Virus record (IMG/VR): IMGVR_UViG_2703718788_000009
Reading direction: 5' to 3' (one strand)
Source: a virus
Lineage: Duplodnaviria > Heunggongvirae > Uroviricota > Caudoviricetes
DNA length: 13,879 nt
The translations under genes were made by a program, and so were the position numbers. Numbering within the stretch: position 1 is the stretch's first letter; each line of letters starts with the position of its first letter. This document shows, in pieces, positions 4,549 to 12,410 of the stretch. The notes below the pieces were generated by a model. It was not told the DNA's origin and did not search any database. It was given only the letters and a program-made list of their open reading frames with translations.

Positions 4549-4595
4549 ATGAGTCCTTCCAGGACCTTAGCTAAAGCTAAGCCCTTTGGGTCTGT
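4549..4595. repeat. 47-bp repeat, copy B
   Basis: See copy A (57..103). Lies between the capsid-gene terminator and the next minus-strand gene. Confidence 0.85.
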
Positions 4596-5734: not shown

Positions 5735-6070
5735 TTATTGTGCAACACGCAAATCGCCATTGCTGGCAGCGATAACAGCGGCTAAGCCTTCTTTATCCAC
5801 GTAGGCCGGATTGATATAACAGCCCTTGTTGGCAACAACGATAAAAGCATCACCAACCTCAGCACGTTCTACAACCAGCAGCGGAGTTTTACCGGTGTGC
5901 GTTGCTTTAACGAAGGTCTCAACCTCGCCAGCCTCAGTCACCACAACAACAGTGCCAGCCGGAATCTCAGCTTTAACTTTGTTTTTAATTTCAACGTCGC
6001 GAATACTAAATTGCTCATCTGCGGCGTATGAAATGATGTGTCCGCGTGTGCGGATAGTCATATCTCTCAT
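5735..6070 (-). CDS. putative head decoration or auxiliary capsid protein (by position)
   Basis: 111-aa ORF whose TAA stop overlaps the capsid gene's SD. Val/Thr/Gly-rich and beta-like. The assignment is positional (lambda D-E order), not from sequence identity. Confidence 0.45.
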   Translation of the reverse strand: MRDMTIRTRGHIISYAADEQFSIRDVEIKNKVKAEIPAGTVVVVTEAGEVETFVKATHTGKTPLLVVERAEVGDAFIVVANKGCYINPAYVDKEGLAAVIAASNGDLRVAQ

Positions 6071-6195
6071 TTGATCACCTGCGATTTAAATTAACTCCCC
6101 TCAAAGAGTTCCGGTATAACCTCTCAAACCACGACAGGCTCGGGCCGAAAAGTTATGCCGGAAATCTAAAGGGAAATTGATACAAGGAGAGGGAG

Positions 6196-6225
6196 ATAGC
6201 CCCGCACCGTCCAAGCGGGGGCTAT
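6196..6225. other. GC-rich stem-loop in the capsid-operon leader
   Basis: atagccccgc / gcgggggctat pairs as a roughly 10-bp stem with one bulge and a 9-nt loop. No U-tract on either strand, so not a classic terminator. Confidence 0.35.
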
Positions 6226-6548
6226 TCCACATGGGGAAACCGACAACAGTCGGATGATAGTTCACAGTATGGGTTACGGTTACTAGAGAGCACTATCACG
6301 AAAGGCACTCCCCCGAATCAGTTCAGGCTGCGGTCACATCAGCGGGGAAATACCTTTCGGGATAGCTACCCACACAGAAAACCCGCAAAAGAAAACTGTG
6401 TGGATAACTAGCCCAATAGGAGAATTAATCGACCACTCAACGATGATCAGGGTAGTGTTATTTATAAGGCGGCACCGCTACCTGGTCGCCTTTACTTTGG
6501 AGGAAAATACGGCAAATCACTTTCACCATTGATTTACGGTATATGTAT

Positions 6549-6577
6549 ATTATATCAGTATTCTCTCAAATTGTCAA
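6549..6577 (-). promoter_or_regulatory. perfect-consensus sigma70 promoter (TTGACA-N17-TATAAT) on the minus strand, directed at the capsid operon
   Basis: The reverse complement of 6549..6577 reads TTGACA atttgagagaatactga TATAAT, with an AT-rich stretch upstream. Predicted start near 6540, about 470 nt before the ATG at 6070. Confidence 0.6.
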
Positions 6578-6841
6578 CACCCTGATTATATAAATTCTAA
6601 TAATTAGCGTAGTAACGGTATTTTCAGACTGCTATCAATCCCATCAATACGTCACCCCCACCCTTTAGATGCATACATCCGACCTACTTTGTAGGCTTGG
6701 CGTACTGCCAAGGTCGAAGCTATGCGACTCATATCTATCACCACTTTATAAAGCTTGATAGATATCTTTTGATCAATATCAATGTTTTCCGGGGATTTAC
6801 CCGGCTATAGTTCGAATCAAGGAAGGGGAGCATTGATAGAG

Positions 6842-6890
6842 ACACCCAAAGGGGTGACTGAAAGTCACCTGGCATAGCCAGTGAAAGCAC
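6842..6890. repeat. 50-bp repeat, copy A (palindromes GGTGAC-N5-GTCACC and CTGGC-N3-GCCAG)
   Basis: About 42 of 49 positions match 12072..12120; lies about 45 bp upstream of the ATG at 6934. Confidence 0.8.
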
Positions 6891-6933
6891 CCAACCGAAC
6901 AAACAAATCAACTTCTCGCAAAAGGTGATAGTT

Positions 6934-7056
6934 ATGGGTATCAAGAACAGTGCCAGCGCATGGCAAAAGGCCAGGTTTCATCACCCACACATTGTTAAGG
7001 CAATTGAGGTGGTTGGAGTGTTAGCCCTGATGTTAGCTCTGTGTGTGGAGGTGTGA
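6934..7056 (+). CDS. small hydrophobic peptide (41 aa), first ORF of a plus-strand module
   Basis: ATG at 6934 with SD 'aaggtga'; MGIKNSASAWQKARFHHPHIVKAIEVVGVLALMLALCVEV, with a C-terminal transmembrane-like helix. A second 26-aa peptide (7058..7138) follows with SD GGAGG. Below the ORF-track threshold. Confidence 0.3.
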   Translation: MGIKNSASAWQKARFHHPHIVKAIEVVGVLALMLALCVEV

Positions 7057-7157
7057 GATGGGCAAAGGAGGCAAAGCATTTTTAATAGGTCTGGCAGTCT
7101 TAGATTTTGTATTAATCATCATTGAGCGGAGTTTATGAACAGCATTGAGAGGAGTTT

Positions 7158-7418
7158 ATGACGGGGGCTAAAGATATCAGGAGATTGAGGGAAGAGCTGA
7201 TAGCTGAAATTAAAGCTAAGGCAAAGCAAATGGAGATAGCCGCACAAATGGATGTAGCGGAACAGATGTACAAGATGGTTGAAGAGGGAACACCACGGCA
7301 GGTTATAGCAAAAACATTTGGTGTGGGGATCGCCACCGTGCACAGAAGGCTGAAAGCCTATGCCGACTACCACAATATCGAGAGAAAGGAGGATGGGAGA
7401 TTTAAGAAGAATAAATAG
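7158..7418 (+). CDS. small DNA-binding protein with a helix-turn-helix motif
   Basis: 86-aa ORF with SD 'gagagg'. The motif TPRQVIAKTFGVGIATVHRRLK looks like an HTH of the resolvase or IS3 OrfA type; the N-terminus looks coiled-coil. Confidence 0.6.
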   Translation: MTGAKDIRRLREELIAEIKAKAKQMEIAAQMDVAEQMYKMVEEGTPRQVIAKTFGVGIATVHRRLKAYADYHNIERKEDGRFKKNK

Positions 7419-7475: not shown

Positions 7476-8162
7476 ATGTTTAAAGGTCTTGTTGTTACGC
7501 TATTGGCTTGCATTGTATTTGGTCCATGGGTGTTAGTAATTGCTTTACCTATATTGCTGATCATGAGCTTAGGGAATGATATTAAAAAGCTGCAAAAGCT
7601 GCATGCACAATATAAGGAGAATCCCGGCGCGTTCATGGTAAGTCTGGTTATAGTCGCGGGGCTTATTGGATGGGTGTATTTCTCCCTCCCCACAGGAAAT
7701 ACAACTGCAAATGTAGAAGAGGCCGCAGTGGTAGAGGAAAAAGCCAACAAAGGATTCAGATTTATTGTTGGTGTGGATAGCCCAGTATATGGCCCTGAAG
7801 CTGTGGATCCTGCAATGGTGCATGCCTGGTTATGGAACAGAACGGAGAAAGGTAGCTGCAATCAACTAAAAGCGAGCGCCAACATAGAAGAGGAAGGAGA
7901 TACATTTTTCGCATGGTGTAAAGATATCAAAGGCAATGATAGGTGGTTTACCATTACCAATATTGTAGGTGTTTCCCGTTCACTAATGAATCACCCTGAG
8001 GCTAAGAATCCGCTAACAGGTGTCCGATTAAAAGATGGCCCAATATGGATCGATTTATACGGAACACAAATCACTGAGGGCGTGAACAGCGATATCCAGG
8101 ATAAGCTGAAAGACATAAATAATCAGTATGGTGCGATTGTTGAAACCTCTCCTATGAAATAA
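7476..8162 (+). CDS. membrane protein with two N-terminal transmembrane helices and a roughly 150-aa C-terminal domain, possibly superinfection exclusion
   Basis: 228-aa ORF with SD 'agagg'. Hydrophobic segments at about residues 5..30 and 53..70, separated by a Lys-rich loop. Function is a hypothesis. Confidence 0.6.
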   Translation: MFKGLVVTLLACIVFGPWVLVIALPILLIMSLGNDIKKLQKLHAQYKENPGAFMVSLVIVAGLIGWVYFSLPTGNTTANVEEAAVVEEKANKGFRFIVGVDSPVYGPEAVDPAMVHAWLWNRTEKGSCNQLKASANIEEEGDTFFAWCKDIKGNDRWFTITNIVGVSRSLMNHPEAKNPLTGVRLKDGPIWIDLYGTQITEGVNSDIQDKLKDINNQYGAIVETSPMK

Positions 8163-8182
8163 CCACACCTACCCAACCTACC

Positions 8183-8216
8183 AGGGCCACCACTTAGGAT
8201 GGCCCTTTTTATTTAT
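8183..8216 (+). terminator. rho-independent terminator of the 6934..8162 module
   Basis: 7-bp stem agggcca / tggccct with a 10-nt loop, followed by 'ttttatttat', 21 nt after the stop codon. Confidence 0.7.
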
Positions 8217-8220
8217 GTGC

Positions 8221-8280
8221 TATTTAATACCCATTTATCCCCTATTTAATGCCTATTTATTGATTTAATCCGTTTTATGC
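8221..8280. repeat. phased TATTTA(A/T) repeats at roughly 11-bp spacing; possibly bent DNA or an architectural-protein site
   Basis: tatttaatacc / atttatcccc / tatttaatgcc / tatttattgat / ttaatccg / ttttatgcc in succession. Confidence 0.4.
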
Positions 8281-8340
8281 CACAACCGCCCGGTTGACAG
8301 AGTAAGAGAGAGGGTGTAACCCTTTTTCGTAATACTAATA

Positions 8341-8360
8341 AAATCAATAAGTTAGCTTAA
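8341..8360. repeat. copy 2 of 20-bp repeat 'aaatcaataagttagcYtaa'
   Basis: See 2449..2469. Confidence 0.7.
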
Positions 8361-9368
8361 TAAGCCTTTTCTCTATTTTTGTCAAATTTAACATACCCTA
8401 AAAAACTGCAAAATCTGACTGCAAGATTATCTGCAGCTGGATTTCTTACACCTCAATTTGTGGTATCACCCTGACTAGTTTGTGCATAAAATGAACAGTT
8501 TTTAACATTTCCTATTCACCTGGTAACCACACAAAAAGCTAAAAACGAGGCACAGATAATCTTAGAGGCCTGTTTTCTTGTTATCACTATGGGAACGTCG
8601 TAGAAGTGATTTTGATGAAAGATGACCTACCCTATTACACCCCCATTTTTTGTTATCACAATTGCATCCTGTGCGGTATATGGCTGTGTGCTGAAAGCGG
8701 TCTTGGGTGTGGGTGTCAGAAATATCCATTAGCGGTATTAATACCCGTCAGATGTTCGTCTGAGGTGCCAGGCAGGCGCTCCCCCACCTCCCTTTTTTCT
8801 TCTAACAATTCTCAAATATCACACCACTGCCCACCACGTTGCTATTATGTTAATTCTTAAGCTTTGCTGTATGTTGTGCACATTATTTATTCAGGTGCGT
8901 GTACGTAAATTCTGGGCCTCCTTATCATGATTTTTAAATCAGATTTTGTAGTGCGCTTTATTAGTGTAGATAAGATCTATTATGTTAAATGCAATTTTCC
9001 CAACCCTTCAAATCAATGACTTACATGTAAGCATGCACTAACACCCCACACAGCACATTAGACGTGTAGATGTCTATATCCCACATTTTTGATTGTTTTG
9101 TAGTCATTCCCCTGATCATTTAACCAGTATAGTTTGCTATCTGCAGACCACAAAATCGGAATTTACATCTGATTAACATAATCTGTTAGCATGATCACCA
9201 TTACCCACACAACAATAACCCCATGCAAGCCTCTTTAGGCAATTTATCGGCGTGTTGGTGTGAACAGTCTTTCATGTTCTTTATGTATTCATGACTGCAA
9301 GGAATGTATTCATTGGCCTGTGTGGGGGAAGGATGGACTGCCCCAGGGGCCATACTTATGATGCCCGG

Positions 9369-9404
9369 TCAACATAAGTGTTGATAAAATCAAGGGGTGT
9401 TGAT
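9369..9404. promoter_or_regulatory. pair of adjacent inverted repeats (TCAACA-N4-TGTTGA and ATCAA-N6-TTGAT); candidate operator
   Basis: Both have perfect arms; they sit just upstream of the iteron cluster. Confidence 0.4.
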
Positions 9405-9426
9405 CTGCATATTTCCCACACATGAG

Positions 9427-9456
9427 AGGAAATCAGAGCAAAGAGAGAGGAGAGAG
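9427..9456. repeat. polypurine (GA-rich) tract
   Basis: A 30-nt run of almost only A and G on the plus strand. Confidence 0.5.
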
Positions 9457-9465
9457 GTTTGTTAG

Positions 9466-9520
9466 TCAAAATCAAGTCACATTAGAGTCAAATCAAGTCA
9501 AATCAGATGCAATCAATCCC
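9466..9520. repeat. cluster of 'aatcaagtca'-type direct repeats
   Basis: gtcaaaatcaagtca, gtcaaatcaagtca, aatcagatgca, aatcaatccc in tandem. Confidence 0.6.
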
Positions 9521-9521
9521 C

Positions 9522-9586
9522 CACCTGTTGGGATTTCCCACATGTTCAACCATACACAGGAGCTAACCTGTTGGGATTTCCTACAC
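9522..9586. repeat. two copies of 'acctgttgggatttccYaca', 45 bp apart
   Basis: 9522..9541 and 9567..9586 are near-identical. Confidence 0.7.
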
Positions 9587-9639
9587 CTCTTGCACATACC
9601 CCGGAAGATTTTTCCGGTGTGCCATCTTTGCAGGCTCCA

Positions 9640-9807
9640 ACCTGTGAAGAATTTTCACACCTGTAAATCCATACAGCACGGTAAAAACTACCGCACCACC
9701 TGTCAAAATATTTTACTACCCCACCAATAATACGGCCCATACCTGTAAAATATTTTTACTACTACCTGTCAAAATCTTTTACTACTACCTGTAAAAATAT
9801 TTGACAC
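9640..9807. repeat. iteron array with ACCTGT core (part of the candidate replication origin)
   Basis: ACCTGT occurs at 9640, 9659, 9698, 9741, 9764 and 9787, plus 9523 and 9566 in the preceding repeat. The last four sit in units of about 23 bp, 'acctgt(c)aaaatattttactac', three of them directly tandem. Confidence 0.7.
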
Positions 9808-9839
9808 TAATAGATAAAGTAACAGACCACACAATAGAT

Positions 9840-9865
9840 CCCCCCCTAACCCCCCCCCCAGGGGG
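9840..9865. repeat. homopolymer tracts C7-TAA-C10-A-G5, bracketed by GATC sites
   Basis: Read directly: gatcccccccctaacccccccccaggggg, with GATC at 9837..9840 and 9876..9879. Confidence 0.8.
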
Positions 9866-9902
9866 AATGGGGAGGGATCAGAGAGTGGGGAAGGTTTATC
9901 AA

Positions 9903-10027
9903 TATATCAAATTGATATACTTAGCTAGATGTATCAATTAATACACTTAAAGGTGAGCAATGCTTAGCTAGATGTATCAATCCGATACACTTAGAATATT
10001 CTAGATGTATCAATTAATACACTTAAA
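9903..10027. repeat. 17-bp perfect palindrome followed by three direct repeats of about 30 bp
   Basis: Palindrome tatatcaa-a-ttgatata at 9903..9919; repeats 'ctagatgtatcaat..atacactta' at 9920..9951, 9963..9994 and 9999..10027. Confidence 0.75.
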
Positions 10028-10906
10028 TCACGTAACTTATTGTATTTATTAAGAAAAGTCATCTACCTATATATACTACTGATTCGCCTCCGCTCATCAT
10101 TAGTATGGTGTAACTGATTCATGCTTCGCTTACGCTCACATTCATCTACTTACACCCCCTTATCTGAATTGAACATTCCCGTCCAATCCAGCTAAGAGAA
10201 TTGATTGAACATTACCTAACATCCGTTAGCTAACATTCTAATCAATTAACTACTTAAACACTTCCACACCTTCCGGTGGTGCCAAGTAACCTGGCATGGT
10301 GGGAAAAGATTCTGCCGTTTTAGGTAGAATTGATTTCCCACAAATAGTAAGTGTCGGCCCTTCAATGTCACTCTCCTATGAGGGGAGAGATGACGGGCCT
10401 CCTGTGTGGGTGAGTATCGGAGCAGTCTGTGAAGTATGAGCAGGCTGTGAGATACGCTACTGTATATCTGCGTAGAACAGCCTCCGCTGTTTACGCTCTT
10501 TGTGTGGTCCGGCGAATGCGTCAGCATGAGGCCCACATGTGGACCGCTGCCGAAAGCTTGCCAGCGCCGGAAGGAGGCAGCAAAGAGTCTCCCGCGCTCA
10601 TGTGTGGGCGTATACGTAAGATATACATTCATAAATCCAATCCTAGGCCCCTAAATGGCCTTCTGGCTGCATTAACCTGTGTGAGTAGTGCAATTGCATT
10701 ACCTGATGCTTAAATCGCGTTGTAGGGCCTCTCATAGAGAATTTAACTATCAAGATAAAAATTGCAGATCGGTCTATTGACAATCTTATTGCATAAATGC
10801 TATAAGTTATTCTGGTTTTGACACGGTAGGGGCCATTAATAATGCTTACCCCCTTTGCTGTGGACTTGCTTGCACCTATAGCACACCTAAATGATAATAA
10901 TTCTCA

Positions 10907-10935
10907 TTGACAATTGGTTGACAATATGATAAGAT
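10907..10935 (+). promoter_or_regulatory. candidate sigma70 promoter (TTGACA-N17-TAAGAT) upstream of a small ORF
   Basis: Consensus -35 at 10907..10912, a 4-of-6 -10 at 10930..10935, and a second overlapping TTGACA at 10918. Confidence 0.35.
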
Positions 10936-10970
10936 TATAAATAGGGGGAGAAACAGATCCGGAGGTCAAT

Positions 10971-11120
10971 GTGGAAATTACTGATGCAATAGCGATCATC
11001 AACCTGGCTGTACTGTGGTGCGGTGTTGCCTACATAGCCGGAGTAACTGCAATAGACAATCTTGAAGAAAAAATGATAGATAAATACAAAAAGATTGTTG
11101 ACAATTTGACGAATGTTTGA
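10971..11120 (+). CDS. small membrane protein (49 aa, GTG start), possibly holin-like or toxin-like
   Basis: GGAGG 5 nt upstream of the GTG; VEITDAIAIINLAVLWCGVAYIAGVTAIDNLEEKMIDKYKKIVDNLTNV has one transmembrane-like helix and a charged C-terminal tail. Absent from the ORF track. Confidence 0.3.
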   Translation: MEITDAIAIINLAVLWCGVAYIAGVTAIDNLEEKMIDKYKKIVDNLTNV

Positions 11121-11495: not shown

Positions 11496-12410
11496 ATGAA
11501 TATTGAGTCTGTTTTTAATATAACTTTAAATGATGATCCTAGTATCCTTTTGCTGCCAATGCTCATAAATAAATCTGGACTATTAAAAAGAGGCGACGCA
11601 AGGGATATCTATATTTACATGTGGAATACTTACTATCTCCACGCTAAAAAAGAGGCCGCCAAGGTGTTCAGCAAGAAGACTAAAGGAAGAAGCCTCAGCC
11701 AGGATATGAAAAACTCCATCAGAAAAGAGTGTTTTGCTATTAAAGATAAAGATTCCTGTGTGGAGATCTCTTATAAGGATATAGAGGAAAGAATTGGAAT
11801 ACTGCGACCAAATGCAGTAAGGGCAATTAAAAAGCTGGAATCTGAAGGAATTATCACCTGCCTTAAAAAAGGCAATAAGCATAACCCTTATGCATCATGG
11901 CAAATTAATGTCGGAATCTTTGAAATGATGGAAAGAGTAGGGATTGAAAACCTCATTGGGTGGGATCTCTTAAAACCATATTGGAAGAAAGAACAGGAAG
12001 CAGCCGGAAGAGGGGAGGGGGCCAAAGCTCCACAGGAAGCTCCAAAACAAGCCGCACAGCAGCCTGAAGACACACCCGAAGGGGTGACCGTAGGTCACCT
12101 GGCTAAGCCAGCGAAAGAGTCCAAAGTGGTGCAATTCCCTTCTGTGAAAGATAAAGACGTTAGCGTAGAGCACAACTCTTATTCCGAAAGTGTGACAACG
12201 TCACCTGTTAAGGCAAACAAGAAGGAGGCATCTAAAGTGATAGATATTTCTTCTTTTATGGCAGATGAAGATGATACGCAAGATGTGTGGTATACACCTT
12301 CAGAAAATGATTATAGTGGTAGTGGTGGTTATGATCCTTATGGCTATGATGAGGATGAATACAACCCATTTGAAGATGAATATACAAATGATTCCGCTAT
12401 CCCTTATTAA
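11496..12410 (+). CDS. putative replication initiator (winged-helix, lambda-O/RepA-like N-terminal domain) with a long disordered acidic C-terminal tail
   Basis: 304-aa ORF with SD 'agagg'. The segment 'VEISYKDIEERIGILRPNAVRAIKKLESEGIITC' resembles the winged-helix DNA-binding domain of lambda O 'RITDSQLSEITKLPVKRCNEAKLELVRMNII', recalled from memory. The C-terminal 140 aa are low-complexity and end in ...EDEYTNDSAIPY. Confidence 0.55.
   Translation: MNIESVFNITLNDDPSILLLPMLINKSGLLKRGDARDIYIYMWNTYYLHAKKEAAKVFSKKTKGRSLSQDMKNSIRKECFAIKDKDSCVEISYKDIEERIGILRPNAVRAIKKLESEGIITCLKKGNKHNPYASWQINVGIFEMMERVGIENLIGWDLLKPYWKKEQEAAGRGEGAKAPQEAPKQAAQQPEDTPEGVTVGHLAKPAKESKVVQFPSVKDKDVSVEHNSYSESVTTSPVKANKKEASKVIDISSFMADEDDTQDVWYTPSENDYSGSGGYDPYGYDEDEYNPFEDEYTNDSAIPY
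12072..12120. repeat. 50-bp repeat, copy B, embedded in the Rep-like coding sequence
   Basis: Matches 6842..6890; encodes ...TPEGVTVGHLAKPAKE... in the disordered tail. Confidence 0.8.

Follow-up and report, generated by a model that had tools for sequence, protein, structure and literature searches.

What occupies the GC-rich, gene-poor block around 10260-10720 of the Caudoviricetes record IMGVR_UViG_2703718788_000009, a stretch of 13,879 nucleotides (nt) that we call the window, and what might it do there? A first-pass annotation, made from the letters alone, had proposed either a structured non-coding RNA, perhaps linked to a nearby replication origin, or a decayed gene. Here we show that the block codes for no protein and consists of an array of three cassettes (M1, M2 and M3) that form hairpins. 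Its non-coding and modular nature, the selection on its pairing, its occurrence in rV5-like phages and its position adjacent to an origin-type architecture are all secure.

The block is set apart by composition, as had been claimed, with 49-58% GC against 29-41% in its surroundings: in 200-nt windows the GC fraction is 0.49 (10301-10500), 0.575 (10401-10600) and 0.535 (10501-10700), compared with 0.29-0.41 upstream (9901-10300) and 0.38-0.395 downstream. It is also set apart by folding. With dinucleotide shuffles as controls (n = 100), RNA folding of the + strand of 10330-10730 yields -155.6 kcal/mol versus -130.8 +/- 6.1 for the shuffles (z = -4.06; none of the shuffles does as well); for the - strand, z is -1.92, and DNA parameters give z = -3.24 (+) and -2.40 (-). 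The + strand of the window's array reaches -148.6 kcal/mol versus -125.4 for the - strand, with 19 versus 5 G.U pairs, and in the arrays of all relatives both strands beat shuffles. An assignment of the strand by folding energy was rejected, the + strand advantage being inconsistent among relatives and absent in phages. The bounds first proposed need adjusting: the structured part spans about 10262-10730, and the conserved units within it are 10348-10402, 10411-10500 and 10501-10600. The stems and the 10-nt palindrome that had been named were all located by direct reading of the sequence:

10298-10305 with 10334-10341: stem, GTGGGAAA with TTTCCCAC
10371-10376 with 10384-10389: stem, CTCTCC with GGAGAG
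10645-10649 with 10657-10661: stem, AGGCC with GGCCT
10533-10542: 10-nt palindrome, CCACATGTGG

The modular organization of the block emerges from comparison with its relatives. The window resembles a family of circular E. coli plasmids of 13.2-13.9 kb and, at ~13.9 kb, looks complete. We compared cassette maps of 12 plasmid loci, and in 12/12 the stretch from the origin to the promoters of the replication gene rep is a cassette array, each cassette being preceded by YTGTGTG(TG)GG. The cassette types are a leader hairpin (H0), a three-hairpin unit of ~45 nt (T3), a nested hairpin (Tb), M2 (~90 nt) and M3 or an alternative M3' (~100 nt), after which comes a conserved tail. Cassette number and order vary among plasmids with 90-97% identical flanks, and the breakpoints between arrays fall at the repeated TGTGTGG motif. 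In the window the order is M1, M2, M3 and a tail reaching ~10730; the closest relative, NZ_CP020521.1 (~95% identity in aligned columns), has an additional T3 cassette between M2 and M3. The parts of the window's array are as follows:

10262-10343, + strand: three local hairpins, including the GTGGGAAA/TTTCCCAC stem, present only in the window and NZ_CP020521.1 (sequence reading; one close relative)
10348-10402, + strand: M1, a hairpin at 10356-10399 (GGCCC / bulge / GTCA-CTCTCC / loop UAUGAGG / GGAGAG-A-TGAC / GGGCC) with a CCUCC tail
10403-10410, + strand: linker TGTGTGGG, a cassette boundary in all relatives
10411-10500, + strand: M2, ~90 nt of hairpins, common only to the window, NZ_CP020521.1 and CP148565.1
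10501-10600, + strand: M3, with 5' TGTGTGG at 10501-10507, the palindrome CCACATGTGG at 10533-10542 and 3' CCCGCGC at 10591-10597
10546-10551/10576-10581, + strand: apex stem of M3, enclosing the conserved GAAAGCUUGCCAGCGCC-GNAA-GGAG segment at 10552-10576
10601-10730, + strand: third TGTGTGGG linker and tail, with the AGGCC/GGCCT hairpin at 10645-10661 and the palindrome GTAGTGCAATTGCATTAC at 10685-10702

The tail is found in all plasmid relatives and, in part, in phages (GGCCCCTAAAT), and the TGTGGG linker finds a complement in CCCACA at 10337-10342. M2 had no phage homologue and showed no convincing covariation. In the window, H0 is replaced by an insertion (9897-10343) together with M1; in canonical plasmids, a T-run follows H0 (GCCTAAAGAG...CTCTTTAGGC; L003 1364-1392 and equivalents) on the - strand. 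A long-range complementarity between 10269-10286 and 10557-10574 (inverted repeat I4) was also considered and rejected, since chance sites elsewhere in the plasmids form duplexes as good as this one (-29.7 kcal/mol) and the partner is missing in most relatives and in phages.

Two of the cassettes are shared with virulent phages. A sensitive blastn search of 10240-10740 against 50,697 phage records, which recovered matches that megablast had missed, returned 121 matching records, all of them rV5-like and all matching the same two blocks, ~10344/10350-10402 and 10537-10597, with 83-91% identity. M1 is 86% identical to the rV5 element, and the M3 core (10537-10597) shares 84-85% identity with ~120 Vequintavirus genomes. 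The whole phage element, of ~280 nt, occurs in 119 records (84-100% identity) at one place per genome, M1 and M3 being single-copy and fixed at one locus in ~120 phage genomes. In 5,426 complete E. coli genomes, blastn with 10200-10780 found 0 chromosomal places and 9 on plasmids; a 17-mer scan of viral contigs gave 1 true match and 5 chance matches, and a 25-mer scan of metagenomes gave 6 matches, all to close relatives. The framework pattern of M3 was found 0 times in viral contigs and, among genome contigs, in 5 chance matches from unrelated taxa. In the reading that we favor, the plasmids either exchanged M1 and the M3 core with rV5-like phages or inherited them from such phages. The matched records include the E. 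coli "plasmid" pRHB39-C03_2 (CP057073.1, 137.6 kb), which is a complete rV5-like phage genome, and 18 records (MG0656xx) deposited as Campylobacter phages are rV5-like coliphage genomes.

The phage homologues also reveal what is kept. A comparative alignment had been suggested as a check, with a lack of transcription and of conserved structure in homologous elements as the outcome that would speak against the proposal; compensatory substitutions are present in both M1 and M3, whose pairing is conserved in the phages. In M1, 15/15 pairs are kept at 100% in 11 sequences, 2 pairs having switched from G-C to U-A on both sides between plasmid and phage, while slid controls reach <=48% pairing. In the 6-bp apex stem of M3 (10546-10551 with 10576-10581), 3/6 pairs are compensatory between plasmid and phage, and one pair goes through A-U, G.U and G-C; the G.U form, seen in two phages, exists only on the + strand. 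Within the segment enclosed by this stem, 24/25 positions are identical to the phages, the sole variable position being the N of a GNRA tetraloop (GGAA or GUAA). Between the window and rV5, the 61-nt M3 core shows 10 differences, 6 of which lie in the three compensatory apex pairs. Regarding the closing helix of M3, the minimum-free-energy fold pairs 5' UGUGUGG(GAG) with 3' (CUC)CCGCGC via 2-3 G.U pairs in most of 15 M3/M3' sequences, and CCGCGCG can alternatively pair with the next UGUGUGG downstream. Taken by themselves, the phage sequences hardly covary in RNAalifold (covariation term +1.14, 2 pairs), their variation being too low to fix the global fold. Base-pairing in the block is thus securely under selection, by the changes that separate plasmid from phage.

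Could the block nevertheless be a decayed gene, or one or several small protein-coding genes? As had been noted, overlapping open reading frames (ORFs) are present on both strands, of 128 amino acids (aa) on the - strand and of 94, 50 and 47 aa on the + strand; the 128-aa and 94-aa open frames speak for such genes, as do the "hypothetical proteins" of 31-56 aa that the annotations of rV5 and some relatives place on the phage element. We hold this explanation to be highly improbable. None of the four ORFs has a match in Pfam. Relative to NZ_CP020521.1, indels of 1, 1, 51, 1, 8 and 1 nt occur within 10263-10623, and because of them, the four 1-nt and the 8-nt indels included, every reading frame of the block is broken. 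No annotated coding sequence (CDS) lies beneath the block match in any plasmid relative. By sequence reading, the frame from the Shine-Dalgarno (SD)-like motif is truncated in the divergent phage L019, with no start codon in the window, and the substitutions sit in compensatory pairs rather than at codon positions. A small peptide that would start from the SD-like motif in M3 was rejected, as the frames are not conserved. The small CDSs that rV5 and some BASEL phages have there (rV5 gp074, at L012 3089-3259; L013 2002-2271) carry the name "hypothetical protein"; they are probably spurious, because they overlap conserved hairpins and their frames are not conserved. The proposal of a pseudogenised remnant is therefore abandoned, on the strength of the missing protein-family match, the indel-broken frames and the lack of an annotated CDS in relatives, and that of a non-coding element is upheld, with selection on pairing visible in the compensatory substitutions of M1 and M3.

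Does the block then belong to a known RNA family? The Rfam search recommended by the first-pass annotation gave 0 matches at gathering thresholds over the whole window (Rfam 15), and in E-value mode just two sub-threshold matches in 8100-11000. The best of these, a cmscan match to RF00169, the bacterial signal recognition particle (SRP) RNA, aligns at 10528-10615 and scores 20.8 bits (E = 0.51), where the gathering score is 40. The alignment takes in CCGGAAGGAGGCAGC, similar to the domain IV apex, and the window matches E. coli 4.5S RNA at 17/21 positions; the two share a GNRA-capped apex and a purine-rich 3' side. That the block is a mimic or a relative of SRP (4.5S) RNA has, in our view, hardly any probability. 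The score stays well below threshold, the phage homologues keep the pairing and lose most of the likeness (GUAA loop; UCGGUU in place of GCAGC), and Rfam assigned the rV5 homologue to no family, SRP included. Indeed, because the SRP-like positions (the "AGCAGC" side becoming UCGGUU) covary as an ordinary stem, the likeness appears coincidental. ARAGORN found 0 tRNA or tmRNA genes in the window. As to a ColE1-type primer RNA, no match to the Rfam RNAI family was found in the window, and the origin is of the iteron/O type. On the + strand, no terminator was found for the block, and the sole promoter-like site, at 10049-10077, is weak.

The location of the array is more telling. The suggestion that the block is linked to a nearby origin is physically correct, as it lies directly to the right of a lambda/P22-type origin at 9695-9895, for which we found four iterons, an AT-rich region, a GC-rich palindrome and an O-like initiator. 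The elements between this origin and rep are listed below:

9695-9808: four iterons of ~22 bp (ACCTGTCAAAATATTTTACTAC-like) of the lambda/P22-type origin (direct-repeat family D1)
9809-9895: AT-rich spacer and GC-rich C-tract/G-tract palindrome (CCCCCCCTAACCCCCCCCCCAGGGGGAATGGGGAGGG; palindrome at 9836-9895) of the origin, terminator-like on the - strand
9900-10085: second origin-like module, with 3-4 palindromic repeats (GATGTATCAATTAATACAC; 9900-10030), then the lowest-GC stretch of the window (repeat families D2 and D3)
10085-10260, + strand: C-rich, G-poor, weakly structured leader (GC skew -0.32 to -0.36)
~10777-10806, + strand: promoter-like TTGACA-18-TATAAG, found by eye, conserved in relatives
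10907-10935, + strand: promoter-like TTGACA-17-TAAGAT, conserved in relatives

The relative L008 has P22-like CGGTAAAA..TTTACC iterons, the layout of the window being the same as that of the P22 origin, and in L008 the AT-rich and palindrome stretch is 80-83% identical to P22/lambdoid origins in 97 phage records. Rep (11496-12410) matches "replication initiation O-like" PHROGs, weakly (E = 4e-5). The second module, in which GC falls to 0.29 (9901-10100, the minimum of the window), is present only in the window and NZ_CP020521.1 and missing from other relatives; M1 accompanies it in both, in the same order as in rV5, that is, iterons, AT-rich stretch and M1. Both promoter-like sites are strong and sigma-70-like, and they lie downstream of the array, facing a 49-aa ORF, a 69-aa ORF and rep. 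The G-rich arm of the origin palindrome (GGGGGAATGGGGAGGGATCAGAGAGTGGGG) contains four G-tracts and could form a G-quadruplex, and the leader at 10085-10260, as a + strand transcript, would resemble a Rho-utilization site.

In rV5, the element lies between gp075 and gp073. The product of gp075, a 116-aa winged helix-turn-helix protein, matches several "replication initiation protein" PHROGs and falls just below the HTH_36 cut-off; gp073 is, by tblastn, confined to the genus Vequintavirus, and the window encodes no homologue of either. After gp075 come four palindromes with 21-bp spacing (iterons), an AT-rich run of ~50 nt and M1. We propose that gp075, the iterons and the AT-rich stretch are probably the phage origin. 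Phage and plasmid agree in having the structured GC-rich element to one side, the same in each, of iterons joined to an AT-rich stretch; in the phage this unit follows an initiator-like gene. With two cassettes also beside a probable origin in rV5-like phages, the array represents an unannotated structured element common to a virus and its possible parasite. The cassette architecture, the phage homology and the true plasmid-origin iterons at 9695-9808 all go beyond what had been noted before.

We tentatively interpret the array as a cis-acting accessory that flanks the origin and folds on the + strand, either as a transcript or as a displaced single strand. In the window it sits between the lambda/P22-type origin, immediately on its left, and the promoters of the O-like rep operon, and the + strand is the sense strand for transcription toward rep as well as the displaced strand (the lagging-strand template) of a rightward fork. 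The array may thus act in cis as a folded + strand nucleic acid and serve replication initiation, or its control, as an accessory. Candidate roles would be a structured transcript prone to priming or R-loop formation, or a set of single-strand hairpin signals.

Several observations weigh against this interpretation. No cassette is universal, M1 being found in 2/12 plasmid loci and M3' replacing M3 in 4, so no cassette can be essential for plasmid replication. Phages and several plasmids fold about equally well on either strand, and no convincing promoter/terminator pair flanks the block. In canonical relatives, H0 resembles a - strand intrinsic terminator, for leftward transcription toward the origin. 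Furthermore, T3-type cassettes are scattered in both orientations, even inside rep, which suits a repeat family better than a dedicated part of an origin. On the phage side, the origin of rV5 could not be defined in the rV5 paper (PMC3606486), and the 2.6-kb ORF-free region of rV5 at 104-106.6 kb, rich in ACTGTTYAC repeats, is an equally good candidate. The run of these repeats lies at about 1960-2130 of L030 (rV5 NC_011041.1, 103500-107200), followed by a T3 at 2191-2234 and by short stretches similar to plasmid non-coding regions.

Some of the same data could also be explained by a structured RNA without a role in replication, carried on a + strand operon transcript (gp075-gp073 in the phage, upstream of rep in the plasmid); this is possible, if on the whole rather unlikely. 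M1 and M3 would then be intercistronic elements for processing or stability, or for antitermination or attenuation, or would be released as a stable small RNA, and a satellite-like plasmid might use its copy of a phage RNA for sensing the helper or for manipulating it. In phage and plasmid alike, the element has the orientation of the genes on either side, and no terminator-like site was found between the rV5 promoter P76 and gp073. The conserved 25-nt segment with its covarying closing stem, the GGAA/GUAA variation and the G.U intermediate confined to the + strand are what an RNA would show, as is the closing helix UGUGUGG/CCGCGCG with its dependence on G.U pairs; the choice of CCGCGCG between an upstream and a downstream UGUGUGG is switch-like, and C(UUCG)G loops occur in sister cassettes. 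Against this idea stand the missing Rfam family, a literature in which we found no rV5-like transcriptome, the near-nil covariation within phages, a phage element whose + strand folds no better than the -, and the free gain and loss of cassettes among near-identical plasmids.

This last point leads to the sister cassettes, which behave differently from M1 and M3. T3 units are 97.2% paired, with 13/17 pairs changed on both sides and 0/500 shuffles matching this, a covariation count that is biased because the T3 sequences were picked by eye. As there are 0 G.U pairs in 180 cells, T3 units are perfect palindromes on both strands. A covariance model (R1) located dispersed copies in the window with 46-52 bits:

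56-99, + strand: T3 copy
4550-4594, + strand: T3 copy
6842-6884, - strand: T3 copy
12071-12114, - strand: T3 copy

The copy at 12071-12114 is inside the rep ORF, where its in-frame translation contributes to a low-complexity linker; length differences of ~16 aa among the Rep proteins of relatives fit the presence or absence of a T3 insert. One inverted copy occurs in L008, another in the 2.6-kb non-coding region of rV5, and at least 39 Vequintavirus records carry T3. The boundary motif is equally widespread. TGTGTGG/CCACACA is the top over-represented 7-mer of the window, with 20 copies versus 2.7 expected, coding regions included, and the degenerate TGTGKGG has 26 copies versus 2.85 expected:

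TGTGTGG sites, both strands: 22 loci, e.g., 21, 2410, 4087, 5689, 6370, 6397, 9827, 10403, 10501, 10601, 11757 and 12284

The motif is enriched in related plasmids too (1.0-1.4 per kb) and around the phage element. Its polarity relative to the origin is not significant in the window (16/22, p = 0.05), the relatives having 13-14 of 20-21.

These properties would be expected if the array were a mosaic of selfish or neutral palindromes, similar to bacterial interspersed mosaic elements (BIMEs) and their repetitive extragenic palindromic (REP) units or to miniature inverted-repeat transposable elements (MITEs), spreading or recombining at TGTGTGG in a tolerant non-coding spot beside the origin, with at most generic effects as terminators, protectors of transcript ends or recombination hot spots. 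Judged by architecture only, covarying palindromic units, conserved linkers and variable combinations are all present. Cassettes that come, go and change order between 90-97% identical flanks with breakpoints at a repeated motif, the dispersal of T3, its near-complete pairing without G.U, and the excess of TGTGTGG all argue for such a mosaic, which we judge rather unlikely. M1 and M3 are single-copy and fixed in the phages, and M3 keeps a long, sequence-conserved unpaired segment, unlike a mere palindrome. The window encodes no transposase, REP-associated tyrosine transposase (RAYT) or integrase, and the lack of a single copy on the chromosomes of 5,426 E. coli sets the array apart from the REP/BIME of this species. 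The three explanations, origin accessory, structured transcript and palindrome mosaic, are compatible with one another: M1 and M3 look like functional modules and T3 like a dispersed repeat.

The gene content of the window adds to the link with rV5-like phages. It encodes tape measure, tail-completion, baseplate/tail-fiber-like and major head proteins, small helix-turn-helix proteins and the O-like replication initiator, and two of its tail proteins have 48-55% identity with proteins encoded by an rV5-like phage. No terminase or portal was found among the ten largest ORFs scanned. With rV5-type tail proteins, a capsid and a tape measure, and no terminase or portal found, the plasmids may be plasmid-borne satellites of a virulent coliphage, and the family may represent an undescribed kind of satellite of rV5-like phages. 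Our literature searches turned up nothing on the element, on an rV5 transcriptome or on rV5 satellites. We speculate, and consider it quite doubtful, that M1/M3 form a previously undescribed module that marks the rV5-like replication origin and that plasmid-borne satellites have captured, together with interchangeable sister cassettes, for recognition, amplification or induction by the replication machinery of the helper, the shuffling of cassettes tracking helper variants.

Cocktails for therapy and biocontrol make wide use of rV5-like phages, although the origin and early control regions of these phages are undefined. The element offers a concrete locus for rV5 replication (gp075, the iterons and M1-M3) and ties these virulent phages to a family of small E. 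coli plasmids. A common cis element is what a satellite would need to hijack the replication of its helper or to sense infection. If the array should turn out to be merely a private family of palindromic repeats, it would still provide a clean, small system for studying the gain and loss of hairpin cassettes and the in-frame insertion into genes.

The remaining non-coding DNA of the window, ~4 kb in all (6070-7158 and 8162-10970), contains further candidates. The 1.5 kb at 8162-9690 are ORF-free and 84-98% conserved among plasmids; partition sites or other cis sites may lie there, among several repeat families (8211-8254, 9469-9510 and 9523-9585) and inverted repeats of some length. Behind the first rep-proximal promoter (10777-10860) comes a small hairpin (GGTAGGGG...CTTACCCCC), possibly a short RNA, and the second (10907-11120) would drive the conserved 49-aa ORF (WP_157794903.1 in relatives), ahead of rep.

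Comparison with known systems places the array among elements that flank origins or form mosaics. Like lambda and P22, the plasmids have an O-like Rep adjoining the array, which begins at the end of a lambdoid-type origin; in the canonical relatives, the first hairpin directly follows the iterons, the AT-rich stretch and the palindrome. In lambdoid phages, by contrast, the O gene itself contains the origin, with one palindrome only; here, ~1.6 kb separate the origin from rep downstream, variable hairpin cassettes fill the 300-600 nt after the origin, and no cassette homologue was found in lambdoid phages. Single-strand initiation (ssi) signals of plasmids and phage G4 are hairpin sites near origins that depend on primase or PriA. 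The array resembles them in its clusters of stable one-strand hairpins near an origin, its + strand being the lagging-strand template of a rightward fork, and in its sister cassettes, which consist of three consecutive hairpins and then a CTG-containing linker. It differs from known ssi signals in having no sequence similarity to them and in its much shorter units (~45 nt), dispersed in both orientations.

Structured or R-loop-forming primer RNAs are known from ColE1 (RNA II) and from the origin transcripts of T4 and T7. A GC-richer, G-skewed, hairpin-rich stretch with G clusters beside an origin is reminiscent of these, as the first-pass annotation had proposed; in contrast to ColE1 RNA II, however, the origin here is of the iteron/O type, Rfam gives no RNA I/RNA II match, and there is neither a defined promoter nor an antisense partner. 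With REP/BIME, the array shares mosaics of short palindromic units and conserved linkers, an extragenic location, strain-variable numbers and covarying stems. The sequences are unrelated, however; only these plasmids and rV5-like phages have the elements, which no RAYT accompanies, and M3 has its long conserved unpaired segment. The element thus adds a new form to the known kinds of structured non-coding DNA that flank origins or build mosaics, and does not make up a category of its own.

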